Assembly (NCBI RefSeq): GCF_016026235.1
Contig: NZ_CP065613.1
Source of the DNA: Escherichia coli
GTDB taxonomy: Bacteria; Pseudomonadota; Gammaproteobacteria; Enterobacterales; Enterobacteriaceae
DNA: 64,000 nucleotides
Direction: 5' to 3' (one strand)
The translations under genes were made by a program, and so were the position numbers. Each line of letters starts with the position of its first letter. The stretch's first letter is position 1. The notes below the pieces were generated by a model. The model did not search any database. It had not been told where the DNA came from and saw only the letters and a list, made by a program, of their open reading frames with translations. Shown in pieces: positions 10,068-50,642 of the stretch.

Positions 10068-10084
10068 TGCAGGGTTCGTGCCAG
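10068..10084 (-). promoter_or_regulatory. Sigma-54-type promoter (-24 GG / -12 GC) upstream of astC
   Basis: Minus strand reads CTGGCAC-gaacc-CTGCA, matching TGGCAC-N5-TTGCA, about 75 bp upstream of the astC start. Confidence 0.55.
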
Positions 10085-10440
10085 CCAGTGATGAAAGTGC
10101 ATAAACCGCGGAGGCTAACTGGAAATCAAGGAGTTATAACCAAACCATATGCATTTAAAGTGCATATTAAGTGAATACGTTTGCGATGTGAGCGAATAAA
10201 AAGAATAAAAAACGCAATGTTATGCAGAAGTAAAATATAATTCTGGAATTGTGATCATTGACGAAATTTACTGGAAATTACTGCGCCATTCTGACGCAGC
10301 TCGCACCAAAAGCGGGCATTTTTTGCGCCATCGTTGACATCATTAACAACCATCGATCAAATCACTTAACAACAGGCGGTAAGCAAAGCGAAATTCTGCT
10401 ACCATCCACGCACTCTTTATCTGAATAAATGGCAGCGACT

Positions 10441-18796: not shown

Positions 18797-19417
18797 TTAC
18801 TGACGCTGGAGCGACTTCAGCGTCAGATACCCACTCCACACCCGCGTAAAGGTCGTCATCCAGCACAACGCACCGAAGATCCACGCAAACCACGCAAACC
18901 ATGCAGGGAATAAACATCCCAGCACAAACAGTAAGATCGTTTCTGTGCCTTCGGTTAATCCCCCCAGATAGTAAAACGACTTATGTGCATAACCGGGGTT
19001 ATCAATCTGATGTTTTGCTGCCAGTGCAGCAAAGGCGAGAAAACTGCTGCCCGTGCCGATAAACGCAAACAACAACCAGCCGCCTGCCAGCGCATTTTGC
19101 TCCGGTGCAGCAAGAATAAAGCCAAACGGCACCAGCGCGTAAAAGAGAAAATCGAGAGAAATATCAAGAAAGCCGCCCGCGTCGGTAAGCTCTCTGCGCC
19201 GCGCCAGCGCACCGTCCAGACCATCAAGCAGCCTGTTCAACAAAATGACGACTAGCGCCGCCAGATACCAGCCCAGCGCCAGAAACGGCAGAGCCAGCAC
19301 GCCGATGGCAAATCCCACTAATGTTAAACCATCTGGCGTAATGCCCGGTTTATCAAGAACCCGCACGCACTGATGCAACAACGGTTTAATCCGGGGATGA
19401 AGATGGCGGTCTAGCAC
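18797..19417 (-). CDS. ynjF: CDP-alcohol phosphatidyltransferase family membrane protein
   Basis: ORF 18797-19423; second GTG gives 206 aa; DGxxAR motif (LDGLDGALARR). Confidence 0.75.
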   Translation of the reverse strand: MLDRHLHPRIKPLLHQCVRVLDKPGITPDGLTLVGFAIGVLALPFLALGWYLAALVVILLNRLLDGLDGALARRRELTDAGGFLDISLDFLFYALVPFGFILAAPEQNALAGGWLLFAFIGTGSSFLAFAALAAKHQIDNPGYAHKSFYYLGGLTEGTETILLFVLGCLFPAWFAWFAWIFGALCWMTTFTRVWSGYLTLKSLQRQ

Positions 19418-20384: not shown

Positions 20385-21728
20385 ATGGATCAGACATATT
20401 CTCTGGAGTCATTCCTCAACCATGTCCAAAAGCGCGACCCGAATCAAACCGAGTTCGCGCAAGCCGTTCGTGAAGTAATGACCACACTCTGGCCTTTTCT
20501 TGAACAAAATCCAAAATATCGTCAGATGTCATTACTGGAGCGTCTGGTTGAACCGGAGCGCGTGATCCAGTTTCGCGTGGTATGGGTTGACGATCGCAAC
20601 CAGGTACAGGTCAACCGTGCATGGCGCGTGCAGTTCAGCTCCGCCATCGGCCCGTACAAAGGCGGTATGCGCTTCCATCCGTCAGTTAACCTCTCCATTC
20701 TCAAATTTCTCGGCTTCGAGCAAACCTTCAAAAATGCCCTGACTACCCTGCCGATGGGCGGTGGTAAAGGCGGCAGCGATTTCGATCCAAAAGGGAAAAG
20801 CGAAGGCGAAGTGATGCGTTTCTGCCAGGCGCTGATGACTGAACTGTATCGCCACCTGGGCGCGGATACCGACGTTCCGGCAGGTGATATCGGCGTTGGT
20901 GGTCGTGAAGTCGGCTTTATGGCGGGGATGATGAAAAAGCTCTCCAACAATACCGCCTGCGTCTTCACCGGTAAGGGCCTTTCATTTGGCGGTAGTCTTA
21001 TTCGCCCGGAAGCTACCGGCTACGGTCTGGTTTATTTCACAGAAGCAATGTTAAAACGCCACGGTATGGGTTTTGAAGGGATGCGCGTTTCCGTTTCTGG
21101 CTCCGGCAACGTCGCCCAGTACGCTATCGAAAAAGCGATGGAATTTGGTGCTCGTGTGATCACTGCGTCAGACTCCAGCGGCACTGTAGTTGATGAAAGC
21201 GGATTCACGAAAGAGAAACTGGCACGTCTTATCGAAATCAAAGCCAGCCGCGATGGTCGAGTGGCAGATTACGCCAAAGAATTTGGTCTGGTCTATCTCG
21301 AAGGCCAACAGCCGTGGTCTGTACCGGTTGATATCGCCCTGCCTTGCGCCACCCAGAACGAACTGGATGTTGACGCCGCGCATCAGCTTATCGCCAATGG
21401 CGTTAAAGCCGTCGCCGAAGGGGCAAATATGCCGACCACCATCGAAGCGACTGAACTGTTCCAGCAGGCAGGCGTACTGTTTGCACCGGGTAAAGCGGCT
21501 AATGCTGGCGGTGTAGCAACGTCAGGCCTTGAAATGGCGCAAAACGCTGCGCGCCTGGGCTGGAAAGCCGAGAAAGTTGACGCACGTTTGCATCACATCA
21601 TGCTGGATATCCACCATGCCTGTGTTGAGCATGGTGGTGAAGGTGAGCAAACCAACTACGTGCAGGGCGCGAACATTGCCGGTTTTGTGAAGGTTGCCGA
21701 TGCGATGCTGGCGCAGGGTGTGATTTAA
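20385..21728 (+). CDS. gdhA: NADP-specific glutamate dehydrogenase
   Basis: 447-aa ORF with the Glu/Leu/Phe/Val dehydrogenase active-site region (GGGKGG). Confidence 0.95.
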   Translation: MDQTYSLESFLNHVQKRDPNQTEFAQAVREVMTTLWPFLEQNPKYRQMSLLERLVEPERVIQFRVVWVDDRNQVQVNRAWRVQFSSAIGPYKGGMRFHPSVNLSILKFLGFEQTFKNALTTLPMGGGKGGSDFDPKGKSEGEVMRFCQALMTELYRHLGADTDVPAGDIGVGGREVGFMAGMMKKLSNNTACVFTGKGLSFGGSLIRPEATGYGLVYFTEAMLKRHGMGFEGMRVSVSGSGNVAQYAIEKAMEFGARVITASDSSGTVVDESGFTKEKLARLIEIKASRDGRVADYAKEFGLVYLEGQQPWSVPVDIALPCATQNELDVDAAHQLIANGVKAVAEGANMPTTIEATELFQQAGVLFAPGKAANAGGVATSGLEMAQNAARLGWKAEKVDARLHHIMLDIHHACVEHGGEGEQTNYVQGANIAGFVKVADAMLAQGVI

Positions 21729-43563: not shown

Positions 43564-44418
43564 TCACACCATATCCAGCGCAGTTTTTCCTTTTGGTGCC
43601 GGATATGCTTTGTCCAGCATGGCTAATTCCGCTGACGAAAGTTCGACCTCAAGCACAGCCGCATTCTGTTGGACATGGGCAATCGTGGCCGCTTTTGGAA
43701 TCGCCATCACACCCTGATGGCTGATTACCCACGCCAACAATACTTGTGCCGCGCTGATATTGTGAGCATGTGCAATTTCGTTGACTACCGCGTTTTTTAA
43801 CAGTCCATTGCGCAACCGCCCGGCCTGGGCTAATGGACTGTAAGCCATCACCGGCATCTGCTGTTGCTGGCACCAGGGGAGTAGATCGTACTCAATCCCT
43901 CGTGAACCGAGATGGTAAAGCACCTGATTAGTGGCACACTGATTTCCCCCCGGCAGCTGCCAGAGTTCCTGCATATCAGCATGATCAAGGTTAGAAACGC
44001 CCCAGCGGCGGATTTTTCCCTGGGCGATCAATTTTTCCATCGCTGCCACAGTCTCTTCAAAAGCGAAACTGCCAGACCAGTGTAATAAGTAGAGATCGAG
44101 ATAATCAGTATTGAGACGGCGTAAACTGGCTTCGCATGCATTTATCGCTTTTTGCCCGCCAGCATTCCACGGATAGACTTTAGAGACGAGAAAGACGTTA
44201 TCGCGCAGACCGGTTAATGCTTCCCCAACCACCTTTTCGGCACCGCCATCGGCATACATTTCGGCGGTATCAATGAGGGTTAAACCGAGCTCAATGCCCG
44301 CGCGTAGTGCAGCAACTTCTGTTTTGCGCTGACTGGCATCTTCGCCCATATACCATGTTCCCTGCCCTATGGCTGGCAGTGAGACATCGCCACTAAATTG
44401 AATCATTTTTTGTTGCAT
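43564..44418 (-). CDS. yeaE: Aldo-keto reductase
   Basis: 284-aa ORF, AKR family. Confidence 0.85.
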   Translation of the reverse strand: MQQKMIQFSGDVSLPAIGQGTWYMGEDASQRKTEVAALRAGIELGLTLIDTAEMYADGGAEKVVGEALTGLRDNVFLVSKVYPWNAGGQKAINACEASLRRLNTDYLDLYLLHWSGSFAFEETVAAMEKLIAQGKIRRWGVSNLDHADMQELWQLPGGNQCATNQVLYHLGSRGIEYDLLPWCQQQQMPVMAYSPLAQAGRLRNGLLKNAVVNEIAHAHNISAAQVLLAWVISHQGVMAIPKAATIAHVQQNAAVLEVELSSAELAMLDKAYPAPKGKTALDMV

Positions 44419-44451
44419 TGTTTCCTCCCAGGTATTGCACCACCGTAATGC

Positions 44452-44477
44452 AAAACAGGGCGTGACGCCCTGTTTTT
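44452..44477 (-). terminator. Intrinsic terminator downstream of mipA
   Basis: cagggcgtgacgccctg stem with flanking T-runs. Confidence 0.6.
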
Positions 44478-44507
44478 ATGCACAAAATGCCCTGGAAAGA
44501 TGCATTA

Positions 44508-45254
44508 TCAGAATTTGTAGGTGATCCCGGTAGAAATCAGGCCAGTCCAGGATTTATCCACCATCGGGCTGTCAGTAACTTCATCAGACTGACGGGTATA
44601 GCGCGCGGTACCGTAAACACTCCAGTCGCCGAGGAAGTTGTAGCTGGCGCTCAGCTCCAGGTAAGGGCTCCAGCTGTCGTTCGGGTTATAGCCACGCAGA
44701 CCGCTGCGAGCGGACTCTTTGCGCGATACGCCATAATAGTATTCGTTCTGGTTTTCGCTGTTCCACTGCACACCGATACCCGGGGTCACGGTCAGGCCGC
44801 CGTTGGTGTAACGATACAACCAGGCCATATCCCAGACGATGCCGTTGCTGTTATCCAGGGTATCGCCAGCCAGGGTGGTACGCAGGTAACCGTACTGGGT
44901 AAAGTGAGCATAAGACAGACCAGCCATCATGGTGCTCTTACGGTCATCCAGGTGACGCATTTGGTGATCGCCACTGTCTTTCGCTTTGAAGTAAAGCGGC
45001 GACCAATAAGCGGTAATTGAAAGTTTGTCCGTTGCGTCATTCCACAGGTAGTAACCACCACCTAAGCCACGGAACCAGAAGTTATCGCCTTCATAGTTGA
45101 TTACCGGTACTGGGTAAACATCGGTATCGTAATCTTTATATGGGTGTTCAACGACACCTACGCCTGCGCCCAGGGAAAATTTACCTTCAGCGTGCGCTAC
45201 GCCTGCAGACGTTGCGATAAGCACTCCAAGTGCCAGAAGTTTGAGTTTGGTCAC
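44508..45254 (-). CDS. mipA: MltA-interacting outer membrane protein
   Basis: 248-aa ORF with signal peptide and C-terminal aromatic residue (…GITYKF). Confidence 0.88.
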   Translation of the reverse strand: MTKLKLLALGVLIATSAGVAHAEGKFSLGAGVGVVEHPYKDYDTDVYPVPVINYEGDNFWFRGLGGGYYLWNDATDKLSITAYWSPLYFKAKDSGDHQMRHLDDRKSTMMAGLSYAHFTQYGYLRTTLAGDTLDNSNGIVWDMAWLYRYTNGGLTVTPGIGVQWNSENQNEYYYGVSRKESARSGLRGYNPNDSWSPYLELSASYNFLGDWSVYGTARYTRQSDEVTDSPMVDKSWTGLISTGITYKF

Positions 45255-45570
45255 AATTAATCATTCCTTAAACAAATGTTTAGCGGGCGACAAAGTTTAC
45301 CCGTCAATACATCGAAACCCAACCTTTTTACGTTTTCATTTTTTAAAGTAACTGTTTAATTTTCCTGACGCGGATGACACCGCGCTTACAGCCAAATGAA
45401 TTTAGCGTTACTGGCGAGCCTTGTCTTTACATTAATTATGCAAAATTTATGGATGAGTTGTTGATATGCCATTGAAATTAAGAAAGCCGTGCAGGCAAGT
45501 TTTCCATTTGCCATCTACGCTTAATTTTGAAGGTGTATCACCGGGCACGTTGTTCTCATCGTCGATAAAA

Positions 45571-45586
45571 TGGCATGAGAGTTGCT
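45571..45586 (+). promoter_or_regulatory. Sigma-54-type promoter motif upstream of yeaG
   Basis: TGGCAT-gagag-TTGCT (GG-N10-GC) about 105 bp upstream of the yeaG ATG. Confidence 0.5.
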
Positions 45587-45689
45587 GTGTTTTAGCAAGA
45601 GACGTCGTTCAGTTTACCTCTTCCGGGAGCCTCTACTATTCATATGAACGGCTCTTAACCTGTGCTAAAAAACGAAAGGACGGCATACC

Positions 45690-47624
45690 ATGAATATATT
45701 CGATCACTATCGCCAGCGATATGAAGCTGCCAAGGACGAAGAGTTCACACTGCAGGAGTTTCTTACCACTTGTCGGCAAGATCGCAGTGCTTATGCCAAC
45801 GCGGCTGAGCGGCTATTGATGGCTATCGGTGAGCCTGTCATGGTCGATACAGCCCAGGAACCCAGACTTTCTCGACTCTTTTCTAACCGGGTCATTGCAC
45901 GTTATCCGGCATTTGAAGAGTTTTACGGCATGGAAGACGCGATTGAACAGATTGTCTCTTATCTGAAACACGCGGCTCAGGGGCTGGAAGAGAAGAAACA
46001 AATCCTGTATCTGCTGGGGCCTGTGGGTGGGGGTAAATCATCGCTTGCTGAGCGACTGAAATCATTAATGCAGCTCGTACCGATTTATGTATTGAGCGCC
46101 AACGGTGAGCGTAGCCCGGTCAACGATCATCCGTTCTGTCTTTTCAATCCGCAGGAAGATGCTCAGATTCTGGAAAAAGAGTATGGCATTCCTCGCCGTT
46201 ATCTCGGCACCATCATGTCGCCGTGGGCGGCAAAACGTCTGCATGAATTTGGTGGCGATATTACTAAGTTCCGGGTAGTGAAGGTCTGGCCGTCCATTCT
46301 GCAACAAATTGCTATCGCCAAAACAGAGCCCGGTGATGAGAACAACCAGGACATCTCCGCGCTGGTAGGGAAAGTCGATATTCGTAAACTCGAACACTAC
46401 GCGCAGAATGACCCAGACGCCTATGGCTATTCCGGCGCACTGTGCCGCGCCAACCAGGGGATCATGGAATTCGTTGAGATGTTTAAAGCACCGATTAAAG
46501 TGCTGCATCCCTTGTTAACCGCCACTCAGGAAGGTAACTACAACGGGACGGAAGGTATCTCCGCCCTGCCGTTCAACGGGATTATTCTCGCCCACTCGAA
46601 CGAGTCCGAATGGGTCACTTTCCGTAATAACAAAAACAACGAAGCCTTCCTCGATCGTGTTTACATCGTGAAGGTGCCGTATTGCTTGCGCATTTCCGAA
46701 GAGATCAAAATCTACGAGAAATTGCTTAATCACAGTGAATTGACTCACGCCCCATGCGCCCCTGGCACGCTCGAAACACTGTCACGTTTTTCCATTCTTT
46801 CGCGCCTGAAAGAGCCAGAAAACTCCAGCATTTATTCAAAGATGCGGGTTTATGATGGCGAAAGTCTGAAAGACACCGATCCCAAAGCCAAGTCGTATCA
46901 GGAATATCGTGACTACGCCGGTGTCGATGAAGGGATGAACGGTCTGTCGACGCGTTTTGCGTTTAAGATCCTCTCCCGCGTGTTCAACTTCGATCATGTA
47001 GAAGTGGCAGCAAACCCGGTCCATCTGTTCTACGTCCTAGAACAGCAGATCGAGCGCGAGCAGTTCCCACAAGAGCAGGCAGAACGCTATCTGGAGTTCC
47101 TGAAAGGTTATCTGATCCCGAAATATGCCGAGTTTATTGGCAAAGAGATCCAGACGGCCTACCTTGAATCCTATTCCGAATATGGGCAAAACATTTTCGA
47201 CCGTTATGTTACCTACGCGGATTTCTGGATTCAGGATCAGGAGTATCGCGATCCGGATACCGGGCAGCTGTTTGACCGCGAGTCTCTTAACGCCGAGCTG
47301 GAGAAAATCGAGAAACCGGCGGGGATCAGTAATCCAAAAGATTTCCGCAACGAGATTGTTAACTTCGTACTGCGCGCCAGAGCCAATAACAGCGGACGCA
47401 ATCCGAACTGGACCAGCTATGAAAAACTGCGCACGGTTATCGAGAAGAAAATGTTCTCCAATACCGAGGAGCTGTTGCCGGTTATCTCGTTTAACGCCAA
47501 AACGTCAACCGACGAGCAGAAGAAACACGACGACTTTGTCGACCGTATGATGGAAAAAGGCTACACCCGTAAACAGGTGCGTTTACTGTGCGAATGGTAT
47601 TTGCGCGTACGTAAATCGTCTTAA
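45690..47624 (+). CDS. yeaG: PrkA-family serine protein kinase
   Basis: 644-aa ORF with Walker A GPVGGGKSS. Confidence 0.9.
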   Translation: MNIFDHYRQRYEAAKDEEFTLQEFLTTCRQDRSAYANAAERLLMAIGEPVMVDTAQEPRLSRLFSNRVIARYPAFEEFYGMEDAIEQIVSYLKHAAQGLEEKKQILYLLGPVGGGKSSLAERLKSLMQLVPIYVLSANGERSPVNDHPFCLFNPQEDAQILEKEYGIPRRYLGTIMSPWAAKRLHEFGGDITKFRVVKVWPSILQQIAIAKTEPGDENNQDISALVGKVDIRKLEHYAQNDPDAYGYSGALCRANQGIMEFVEMFKAPIKVLHPLLTATQEGNYNGTEGISALPFNGIILAHSNESEWVTFRNNKNNEAFLDRVYIVKVPYCLRISEEIKIYEKLLNHSELTHAPCAPGTLETLSRFSILSRLKEPENSSIYSKMRVYDGESLKDTDPKAKSYQEYRDYAGVDEGMNGLSTRFAFKILSRVFNFDHVEVAANPVHLFYVLEQQIEREQFPQEQAERYLEFLKGYLIPKYAEFIGKEIQTAYLESYSEYGQNIFDRYVTYADFWIQDQEYRDPDTGQLFDRESLNAELEKIEKPAGISNPKDFRNEIVNFVLRARANNSGRNPNWTSYEKLRTVIEKKMFSNTEELLPVISFNAKTSTDEQKKHDDFVDRMMEKGYTRKQVRLLCEWYLRVRKSS

Positions 47625-47724: not shown

Positions 47725-49020
<1,296 letters not shown>

Positions 49021-49166: not shown

Positions 49167-50642
49167 ATGATTCAGTCAACACGTATTTCCATGGGGTTAT
49201 TCTTTAAATATTTTTTATCGTTAACGAAAATTGATCCTGGTCAAAACTATATATCTCTGCCATCAATAAAATCCAGCACTCACATTGCTCTCCTTTTTAT
49301 GGTTTCTATGGGTACACAAAAATTAAAAGCTCAAAGCTTTTTTATTTTCAGTTTATTGCTGACGTTAATTTTATTTTGCATTACTACCTTATATAACGAA
49401 AACACAAATGTAAAACTCATCCCACAGATGAATTACCTGATGGTTGTTGTGGCTTTGTTTTTCCTTAACGCCGTCATTTTTCTTTTCATGTTAATGAAAT
49501 ATTTTACTAACAAACAAATTTTACCAACACTCATTTTAAGCCTTGCATTTTTAAGTGGCCTTATCTATTTAGTTGAAACCATTGTAATTATCCATAAACC
49601 AATTAACGGCAGTACACTGATCCAGACAAAGTCGAATGATGTTTCTATTTTCTATATTTTCCGCCAACTCAGTTTTATTTGTTTAACCTCGCTGGCGCTC
49701 TTTTGTTATGGAAAAGACAACATCCTTGACAACAATAAGAAAAAAACTGGCATTCTGTTGCTGGCGCTGATTCCTTTTTTAGTTTTTCCCCTTCTGGCAC
49801 ACAATCTGAGCAGTTATAACGCTGACTATTCTTTGTATGTCGTCGATTACTGTCCGGACAACCATACTGCGACCTGGGGAATCAACTATACAAAAATATT
49901 GGTTTGTCTGTGGGCATTTTTACTGTTCTTTATTATCATGCGTACACGATTAGCCAGCGAACTATGGCCGTTAATAGCATTATTATGTCTGGCATCGCTA
50001 TGCTGCAACTTACTTCTACTGACTCTGGATGAGTATAATTATACCATCTGGTATATCAGTCGCGGGATTGAAGTCTCCAGTAAACTGTTTGTTGTGTCTT
50101 TTCTGATTTATAACATTTTTCAGGAGCTGCAACTCTCCAGCAAACTGGCAGTTCATGATGTGCTGACCAATATTTATAATCGGCGCTACTTTTTCAACAG
50201 CGTAGAGTCATTATTGTCGCGACCTGTTGTTAAGGACTTCTGTGTCATGCTGGTTGATATTAATCAGTTCAAGCGCATCAATGCCCAATGGGGACATCGT
50301 GTGGGTGATAAAGTGCTGGTTTCAATTGTCGATATTATCCAGCAAAGCATCCGCCCCGATGATATTTTAGCGCGACTGGAGGGTGAGGTGTTTGGCTTGC
50401 TATTTACCGAACTCAATAGTGCCCAGGCAAAAATCATTGCGGAACGTATGCGTAAAAATGTCGAACTCCTGACCGGCTTTAGTAACAGATATGATGTTCC
50501 TGAACAAATGACCATCAGTATTGGCACGGTTTTTTCAACGGGTGACACGCGTAATATCTCGCTTGTCATGACGGAAGCAGATAAAGCCTTACGCGAAGCG
50601 AAAAGCGATGGGGGCAACAAAGTGATTATTCATCATATTTAA
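49167..50642 (+). CDS. yeaI: GGDEF-domain membrane protein with degenerate active site
   Basis: 491 aa; N-terminal multi-TM region; GGDEF position reads EGEVF (…ARLEGEVFGLLF…). Confidence 0.85.
   Translation: MIQSTRISMGLFFKYFLSLTKIDPGQNYISLPSIKSSTHIALLFMVSMGTQKLKAQSFFIFSLLLTLILFCITTLYNENTNVKLIPQMNYLMVVVALFFLNAVIFLFMLMKYFTNKQILPTLILSLAFLSGLIYLVETIVIIHKPINGSTLIQTKSNDVSIFYIFRQLSFICLTSLALFCYGKDNILDNNKKKTGILLLALIPFLVFPLLAHNLSSYNADYSLYVVDYCPDNHTATWGINYTKILVCLWAFLLFFIIMRTRLASELWPLIALLCLASLCCNLLLLTLDEYNYTIWYISRGIEVSSKLFVVSFLIYNIFQELQLSSKLAVHDVLTNIYNRRYFFNSVESLLSRPVVKDFCVMLVDINQFKRINAQWGHRVGDKVLVSIVDIIQQSIRPDDILARLEGEVFGLLFTELNSAQAKIIAERMRKNVELLTGFSNRYDVPEQMTISIGTVFSTGDTRNISLVMTEADKALREAKSDGGNKVIIHHI

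Follow-up and report, generated by a model that had tools for sequence, protein, structure and literature searches.

The sigma-54 promoter element of the Escherichia coli yeaG-yeaH operon and a candidate distal NtrC enhancer beyond mipA

Results and Discussion

The mipA-yeaG spacer and its features

In the window, the 64,000-nucleotide stretch of Escherichia coli chromosomal DNA analysed here, mipA and yeaG are divergent genes separated by an intergenic region of 435 bp, the mipA start codon ending at 45254 and the yeaG ATG lying at 45690. The 16-mer TGGCATGAGAGTTGCT occupies 45571–45586 on the plus strand, with its GG at 45572–73 and its GC at 45584–85 (GG-N10-GC spacing), and is oriented towards yeaG with 104 bp between its end and the ATG. 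A first-pass annotation had reported a GG-N10-GC motif some 105 bp ahead of the yeaG ATG, within a 435-bp intergenic region, and the sequence check reproduced its position exactly and both distances (104 bp and 435 bp as measured). The mipA-yeaG spacer was matched in 5,425 of 5,426 complete E. coli genomes, and a 46-bp segment surrounding the motif in 5,424. The genes and features around the motif are the following.

44508–45254 (-): mipA
45515–45524 (+): extended -10 of sigma-S type, CTACGCTTAA, belonging to the upstream yeaG promoter, just 5' of the mapped start and within a conserved alignment block
45529 (+): mapped yeaG start giving a 161-nt leader (Kim 2012 start table, U00096.2 1864771, 56 reads)
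45571–45586 (+): sigma-54 -24/-12 core element of yeaGH, TGGCAT-GAGAG-TTGCT (sequence, leave-one-out matrix, ChIP-seq site OS18, conservation)
about 45597 (+): predicted sigma-54 start giving a 93-nt leader (Bonocora convention, 19 bp past the centre of the motif)
45659–45668 (+): pairing site of the SdsR sRNA, -31 to -22 (McQuail 2023), near-invariant in alignments
45674–45683 (+): yeaG ribosome-binding site, 3' of the SdsR site, near-invariant in alignments
45690–47624 (+): yeaG coding sequence, protein kinase YeaG (ORF list and K-12 annotation)
47737–49020: yeaH, 3' of yeaG (ORF list and K-12 annotation)

Scoring of the sigma-54 element

TGGCATGAGAGTTGCT departs from the consensus TGGCAC-N5-TTGCW by one mismatch, at a tolerated position. 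Matches to this consensus occur in the window at chance level, with 4 observed against 4.17 expected at one mismatch and 49 against 45.5 at two. Because these counts do not discriminate, a position weight matrix (PWM) was used instead, built from the 41 other intergenic, gene-oriented ChIP-seq sites of Bonocora 2015 Table 1 (PMC4591121) with yeaG left out. On this leave-one-out matrix, a scan that had been suggested as a check when the motif was first noticed, the yeaG element scores 16.27 bits, which is rank 21 of 42 and hence the median of the validated sites (training range 8.8–21.7). Chance matches scoring at least as high are expected to number between 0.2 (independent bases) and 0.6 (first-order Markov simulations) for both strands of the 64-kb window, and 0.0007 for the plus strand of the mipA-yeaG spacer. 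Three matches in the window reach at least 16 bits, namely astC (10068–10084), yeaG, and a site internal to yeaI (50521–50537). All three are published sigma-54 ChIP-seq sites, astC belonging to the training set, so the matrix behaves well.

Published evidence for the promoter

The exact 17-mer ATGGCATGAGAGTTGCT, starting at 45570, is sigma-54 ChIP-seq site OS18 (FAT 6, gene yeaG) in Table 1 of Bonocora 2015 (PMC4591121), where the predicted start lies 93 nt before the ATG and the flag 'P' denotes an EcoCyc-predicted promoter. Published ChIP-seq has sigma-54 RNA polymerase occupying the yeaG site whatever the growth condition. In nitrogen-starved cells an NtrC ChIP-seq peak is found at the yeaGH promoter (1864821–1864901, 12-fold; Brown 2014, PMC4066584). 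Every NtrC peak in that study centres on the sigma-54 promoter, even at glnA and astC, whose sites are 100–250 bp off, and the yeaGH peak therefore cannot locate the DNA-binding site of NtrC. The yeaG mRNA rises 36-fold within 20 min of nitrogen run-out (Figueira 2015, PMC4664914), a figure that describes the whole rise and not the sigma-54 share. Induction of yeaG is reported to depend on glnG and rpoN, in microarray work cited in a table of Brown 2014 (PMC4066584), yeaGH is entered as NtrC-controlled in regulon tables for both E. coli and Salmonella, and reviews give the operon two adjacent promoters, for sigma-54 and sigma-38.

In Salmonella, TGGCATGAGAGTTGCTTT lies upstream of yeaG (STM1285) with a sigma-54 ChIP-chip ratio of 4.1 (Samuels 2013, PMC3844500). 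With a constitutive activator the gene showed a 2.5-fold sigma-54-dependent rise on microarrays, below the authors' 3-fold cut-off, and a promoter-lacZ fusion was not sigma-54-dependent, its activity in delta-rpoN being equal to or greater than in the wild type (same study).

The first-pass annotation had called a sigma-54 promoter plausible here, had described yeaG-yeaH as induced by nitrogen starvation, and had pointed to published NtrC ChIP data for comparison. The promoter is corroborated by OS18 on the exact sequence, the NtrC peak in starved cells, the binding in Salmonella and the reviews, and the induction by the 36-fold mRNA rise. Since the promoter is present as OS18, at the Brown peak and in the Salmonella study, the finding is correct but already known: the 16-mer is the documented sigma-54/NtrC promoter element of the yeaG-yeaH stress-kinase operon. 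Sequence, position and assigned gene are identical to those of yeaGp (OS18, the EcoCyc predicted promoter and the STM1285 site), and it is the same object without any difference, here in a non-K-12 E. coli strain.

Conservation of the element

The same sigma-54 PWM was applied, at a threshold of at least 14 bits, to the 500 bp upstream of 80 yeaG loci, one genome per species. A sense-strand motif was found in 25 of the 80 upstream regions, with 1/80 on the opposite strand and 0/80 in each of two coding controls. All 25 loci belong to Enterobacterales, with the motif mostly starting 95–130 bp before the ATG, and the genera include Escherichia, Citrobacter, Enterobacter, Kosakonia, Pluralibacter, Erwinia, Pantoea, Serratia, Rahnella, Brenneria, Dickeya and Tatumella. 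The alignment has TGGCA and GTTGCT invariant while the 5-bp spacer differs (GAGAG, AAGGG, ACAGG, AATGG, ACGGG). Invariant contact bases around a variable spacer are the pattern that marks selection acting on those bases. The supplementary conservation table of Bonocora 2015 has the same pattern. Within the 80-locus scan the motif was not found in Yersinia, Edwardsiella or the sampled Vibrionales, Aeromonadales and Alteromonadales, and it has decayed in two insect-symbiont Pantoea and in one Pseudocitrobacter metagenome-assembled genome (MAG).

Two Yersinia loci (L024 and L029), in which the canonical motif is absent, carry the sigma-54-like sequences TTGGCATGCAAACCGCA and TTGGCATACAAACTGCG (12.8 and 14.3 bits) about 501 bp before the yeaG ATG. 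These adjoin the mipA start and point towards yeaG, and NtrC-like sites do not accompany them.

Transcription starts and the leader

The sequence CTACGCTTAA matches the extended -10 of sigma-S promoters. Just downstream of it lies the only mapped yeaG start that was found, 42 bp upstream of the sigma-54 motif at window position 45529, where it is preceded by CCATCTACGCTTAATTTTG; it comes from a nitrogen-replete culture (Kim 2012, PMC3415461, supplementary table). In stationary-phase Salmonella, yeaG gave 5730 reads in the wild type and 26 in delta-rpoS, and its 5' non-coding region 589 and 1, respectively. From the sequence together with this rpoS dependence we infer that the start at 45529 belongs to a sigma-S-type promoter. 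The sigma-54 motif spans +43 to +58 of the corresponding transcript and lies inside its 161-nt leader, so that the earlier wording of a motif "in the long yeaG leader" is literally correct.

The predicted sigma-54 start corresponds to K-12 U00096.3 1866815 and the upstream sigma-S start to K-12 1866747, and McQuail 2023 takes -93 as the start of the yeaG 5' UTR. A directly mapped sigma-54 start near 45597, including under nitrogen limitation, was not found in the accessible literature. The first-pass annotation had held that a start not lying about 12 bp past the GC would refute this reading of the motif. The mapped start does lie elsewhere, but it is that of a second promoter, mapped without nitrogen limitation, and for this reason it does not refute the sigma-54 promoter.

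The SdsR pairing site and the ribosome-binding site are common to both yeaG transcripts. The leader RNA folds no more stably than its shuffles (z = +1.15 and +0.74), and no Rfam family match was obtained for it. A conserved leader block, TCTTCCGGGAGCCTC (45619–45633), is present even in distant Enterobacterales, and a GGGAG/CUCYU helix pairing it with 45654–45658 is weakly indicated (consensus -4.5 kcal/mol, one compensatory pair). CTACTATTCATATGAACGGCTCTTAAC (45633–45660), conserved in Enterobacteriaceae only, contains the -10-like CTACTAT. Further upstream, GGATGAGTTGTTGATATGCCATTGAAAT (45451–45478) is a strongly conserved block that spans -78 to -51 relative to the sigma-S start and, counted from the predicted sigma-54 start, -146 to -119. 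It bears no resemblance to an NtrC site; by eye it resembles an ArcA direct repeat. An Lrp ChIP signal has been reported at yeaG (bioRxiv 10.1101/276808).

NtrC sites in the proximal spacer

NtrC promoters are expected to have NtrC sites of the TGCACC-N5-GGTGCA type 80–260 bp upstream, and none was found there at yeaG. The 17-bp NtrC consensus had no match with up to 3 mismatches anywhere in the proximal mipA-yeaG spacer. As a positive control the same consensus was applied to 13 NtrC-dependent promoters, where it recovered the glnA sites at -139 and -107 and sites at glnH, nac, glnK, rutA, yhdW and astC; there was no match at ddpX, patA, relA and potF, and argT had a single distant match at -1264. 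With 5 of the 13 known promoters missed, the consensus test is weak alone, and an NtrC PWM was therefore built from 14 E. coli sites of the other NtrC-dependent promoters, yeaG not among them.

This matrix detects proximal clusters at relA (14.0, 10.3 and 8.6 bits), argT (10.8), patA (9.1 and 8.8) and ddpX (6.8 and 6.7), and proximal sites in 11 of the 13 other promoters, potF having none and the gltI sites lying downstream of the promoter. In the yeaG spacer from -450 to -40 the best score is about -0.1 to -0.2 bits, and the proximal spacer exceeds the background 99th percentile in 0 of 23 species.

In the K-12 gltI/insH3 region, three NtrC-like sites lie at +44, +66 and +95 of the gltI sigma-54 motif, with spacings of 22 and 29 bp. 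Among these, TGCACCACAGTAATCCA is very similar to the yeaE-mipA site.

A distal cluster of NtrC-like sites beyond mipA

The four best matches to the NtrC PWM within 1.6 kb of yeaG all lie beyond mipA, and three of them form a cluster.

44295–44311: fourth NtrC PWM match, inside yeaE (10.9 bits)
44436–44452: distal NtrC site C, TGCACCACCGTAATGCA, 2 mismatches to consensus (16.0 bits on the independent NtrC PWM)
44452–44478: intrinsic terminator hairpin of mipA, from sequence, between the distal NtrC-like sites
44466–44482: NtrC-like site B (9.2 bits)
44488–44504: NtrC-like site A (8.2 bits)

The centres of C, B and A are spaced by 30 and 22 bp, and the sites are 1.10–1.15 kb upstream of the predicted sigma-54 start. 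The centre of site C lies 1153 bp upstream of that start, in the gap that separates the mipA stop from the start of yeaE, and the cluster at 44436–44504 corresponds to K-12 U00096.3 1865654–1865722. The order site, mipA terminator hairpin, site, mipA stop recurs across genera, and the three sites of Serratia grimesii repeat the 30/22 spacing. Across genera TGCAC and GTGCA are conserved in the distal sites and the 7-bp centres vary.

NtrC sites occur at 4.68 per kb in the distal stretch, whereas the remainder of the 1.5 kb has 0.18 per kb and the yeaG-yeaH DNA of the same genomes 0.137 per kb. Scored with the independent matrix, 19 of 23 sigma-54-positive loci have a distal spacer above the 99th percentile of the background, against 0/23 for the proximal spacer, which is three-fold longer (paired Wilcoxon p = 2e-6); among sigma-54-negative loci the count is 0 of 4. 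In the Pseudocitrobacter MAG yeaE and mipA are present, the -24 element is broken and the distal sites are absent. A metagenome scan contained 7 true yeaG loci among the 80 listed, and five further loci from it entered the combined count, in which distal sites are present at 21 of the 27 loci that carry the sigma-54 motif and at 0 of the 5 that lack it. This co-occurrence (Fisher one-sided p = 0.0023) is small and carries no correction for phylogeny, the five negatives representing about four lineages. E. albertii, Serratia, Tatumella and some Enterobacter lack yeaE, and yeaD there converges on mipA, with the distal sites between two gene 3' ends. A search of both strands over 1.5 kb for a second sigma-54 motif that the distal sites might serve found none reaching 10 bits in nearly all loci. 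The sigma-54-like matches in loci L004 and L020 were rejected, being the NtrC palindromes themselves.

NtrC binding at the distal cluster and the assignment to yeaE

Binding of NtrC at this spot has been attributed to yeaE. Shimada 2021 (PMC8743547) has an NtrC gSELEX peak at 1,863,654, in the yeaE-mipA spacer, together with a gel shift on a yeaE probe; yeaE is called an NtrC-activated sigma-54 target (3.1-fold) and yeaG is never mentioned. An NtrC ChIP-exo study (PMC9853098) places yeaE in the direct in vivo NtrC regulon as the sole gene down-regulated by NtrC, and likewise never mentions yeaG. The two studies contradict each other on the sign of the NtrC effect on yeaE. Site C covers -1 to -17 of a weak mapped yeaE start (3 reads), for which reason repression of yeaE by NtrC is expected, and no sigma-54 motif lies nearby. 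The 21-peak ChIP-seq list of Brown 2014 (PMC4066584) has no separate peak at the distal cluster.

As the conserved role of the cluster, long-distance activation of yeaG agrees better with the comparative data. Chances seem to us about even that the cluster is the natural NtrC enhancer of yeaGH, acting from about 1.1–1.15 kb away across mipA, and we give the same evenly balanced weight to the fuller form of this proposal, in which the sites would repress yeaE in the species having it and activate yeaG by long-range looping. The distal sites could also serve some other local purpose. No location for the yeaGH NtrC enhancer was apparently reported in the literature searched. If the candidate is correct, it would be a rare example in nature of a bacterial enhancer acting at kilobase range over an intervening gene, and would settle the contradictory yeaE assignments of the NtrC site. 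It would also account for the way in which short yeaG promoter fusions, and assignment of NtrC binding to the nearest gene, can miss the NtrC control of yeaG. The candidate distal enhancer is the new lead here; the sigma-54 element adds nothing new.

Proposed mechanism and alternatives

The 16-mer is very probably the -24/-12 recognition element of a sigma-54-dependent yeaG-yeaH promoter that is activated by NtrC on nitrogen run-out and nested in the sigma-S leader. The sigma-54 polymerase waits on it as a closed, inactive complex, which phosphorylated NtrC would open through ATP hydrolysis when nitrogen runs out. Transcription would then begin about 12 bp past the GC, near 45597, and produce the 93-nt leader. 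This promoter is nested within the 161-nt leader that the upstream promoter of sigma-S type produces (mapped start 45529), so that the operon would answer both general stress and nitrogen starvation, with both transcripts carrying the SdsR site beside the ribosome-binding site.

The sigma-54 site might instead act mainly as a brake, the unactivated closed complex at +43 to +58 hindering sigma-S transcription and productive sigma-54 initiation being minor. Its position inside the sigma-S leader suits such a role, repression by sigma-54 at overlapping promoters has precedent cited by Bonocora, the Salmonella reporter is as active or more active in delta-rpoN, and in the Bonocora RNA-seq, done without nitrogen limitation, yeaG RNA fell from 367 to 117 (about 3-fold) once sigma-54 was restored to delta-rpoN. 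However, dps, otsA, osmF, yghA and aldB, which are sigma-S genes with no sigma-54 site, drop in the same experiment, so global sigma-factor competition explains the fall of yeaG equally well, and Bonocora saw no roadblock effect at intragenic sites. The cross-linking of NtrC at the yeaG promoter in starved cells, the 36-fold induction within 20 min and the co-occurrence of conserved NtrC sites with the sigma-54 motif also speak against a site that is chiefly inhibitory, and we regard this reading as improbable, although braking may be an additional role beside activation.

That the promoter is real but answers to another enhancer-binding protein, or to NtrC acting from solution without a dedicated enhancer, draws on the proximal spacer, where the best NtrC score is -0.2 bits and 0/23 species pass the 99th percentile. 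Against it stand the NtrC peak at the yeaGH promoter, the entries in the NtrC regulon tables of E. coli and Salmonella and the conserved NtrC site cluster 1.1 kb upstream, which together make it highly unlikely. A functionless chance match would agree with the chance rate of one-mismatch consensus matches in the window, but in vivo occupancy by sigma-54, conservation confined to the functional bases and a PWM expectation of 0.0007 all oppose it, and we give this reading practically no weight, the published ChIP-seq and the conservation having already refuted it.

Comparison with known systems

In the glnALG operon the sigma-54/NtrC promoter glnAp2 lies downstream of, and in tandem with, the sigma-70-family promoter glnAp1, so that one operon answers two signals. 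The tandem layout is common to yeaGH and glnALG. The upstream promoter is of sigma-S type at yeaG whereas its glnA counterpart is sigma-70/CRP, and glnAp2 has two strong NtrC sites about 110–140 bp upstream whereas yeaG has none within 450 bp. Reitzer and Magasanik are said to have displaced the glnA NtrC sites artificially by 1–3 kb in 1986. Action of that kind would explain activation by DNA looping from sites 1.15 kb away; those displaced enhancers were engineered, whereas at yeaG the separation would be a natural and conserved one that takes in the whole of the unrelated gene mipA. The relA promoter inside rlmD (Brown 2014; Bonocora IS32) is, like that of yeaG, a sigma-54 promoter that NtrC activates and whose control region is unusually placed, and likewise links nitrogen stress to the general stress programme. 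It differs in that NtrC-like sites are clustered proximally, from -189 to -116 (14.0, 10.3, 8.6 and 7.6 bits), a cluster that yeaG lacks.

Other sigma-54-like sequences in the window

The astC sigma-54 promoter, CTGGCACGAACCCTGCA at 10068–10084 (-) (Bonocora OS17), served as an internal positive control in the window, and NtrC-like sites are present at 10282–10318, 215–250 bp upstream of it. The sequence TTGGCACGGTTTTTTCA at 50521–50537 (+) (16.3 bits) is a sigma-54 motif within cdgI/yeaI, at its 3' end, and precedes the next ORF, yeaJ/dgcJ (listed GTG start 50643), by about 105 bp; it is in the Bonocora low-stringency ChIP-seq list (peak 1869785) and could be an intragenic promoter for yeaJ. 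Weaker motifs of about 11–11.6 bits inside ynjF and gdhA, at 19109–19125 (-) and 21469–21485 (+), correspond to entries in the same low-stringency list. A one-mismatch consensus match inside mipA, TGGCACTTGGAGTGCT at 45220–45235 (-), was rejected, as it scores below 10.4 bits, consists of the signal-peptide codons Leu-Ala-Leu-Gly-Val-Leu and is absent from the high-stringency ChIP-seq tables; it most likely arose by chance.

The distance between the astC and yeaG sigma-54 motifs (10076 to 45578) is 35,502 bp here and 34,733 bp in K-12 (U00096.2). The extra DNA of about 769 bp between them is roughly the size of an IS1-type insertion.
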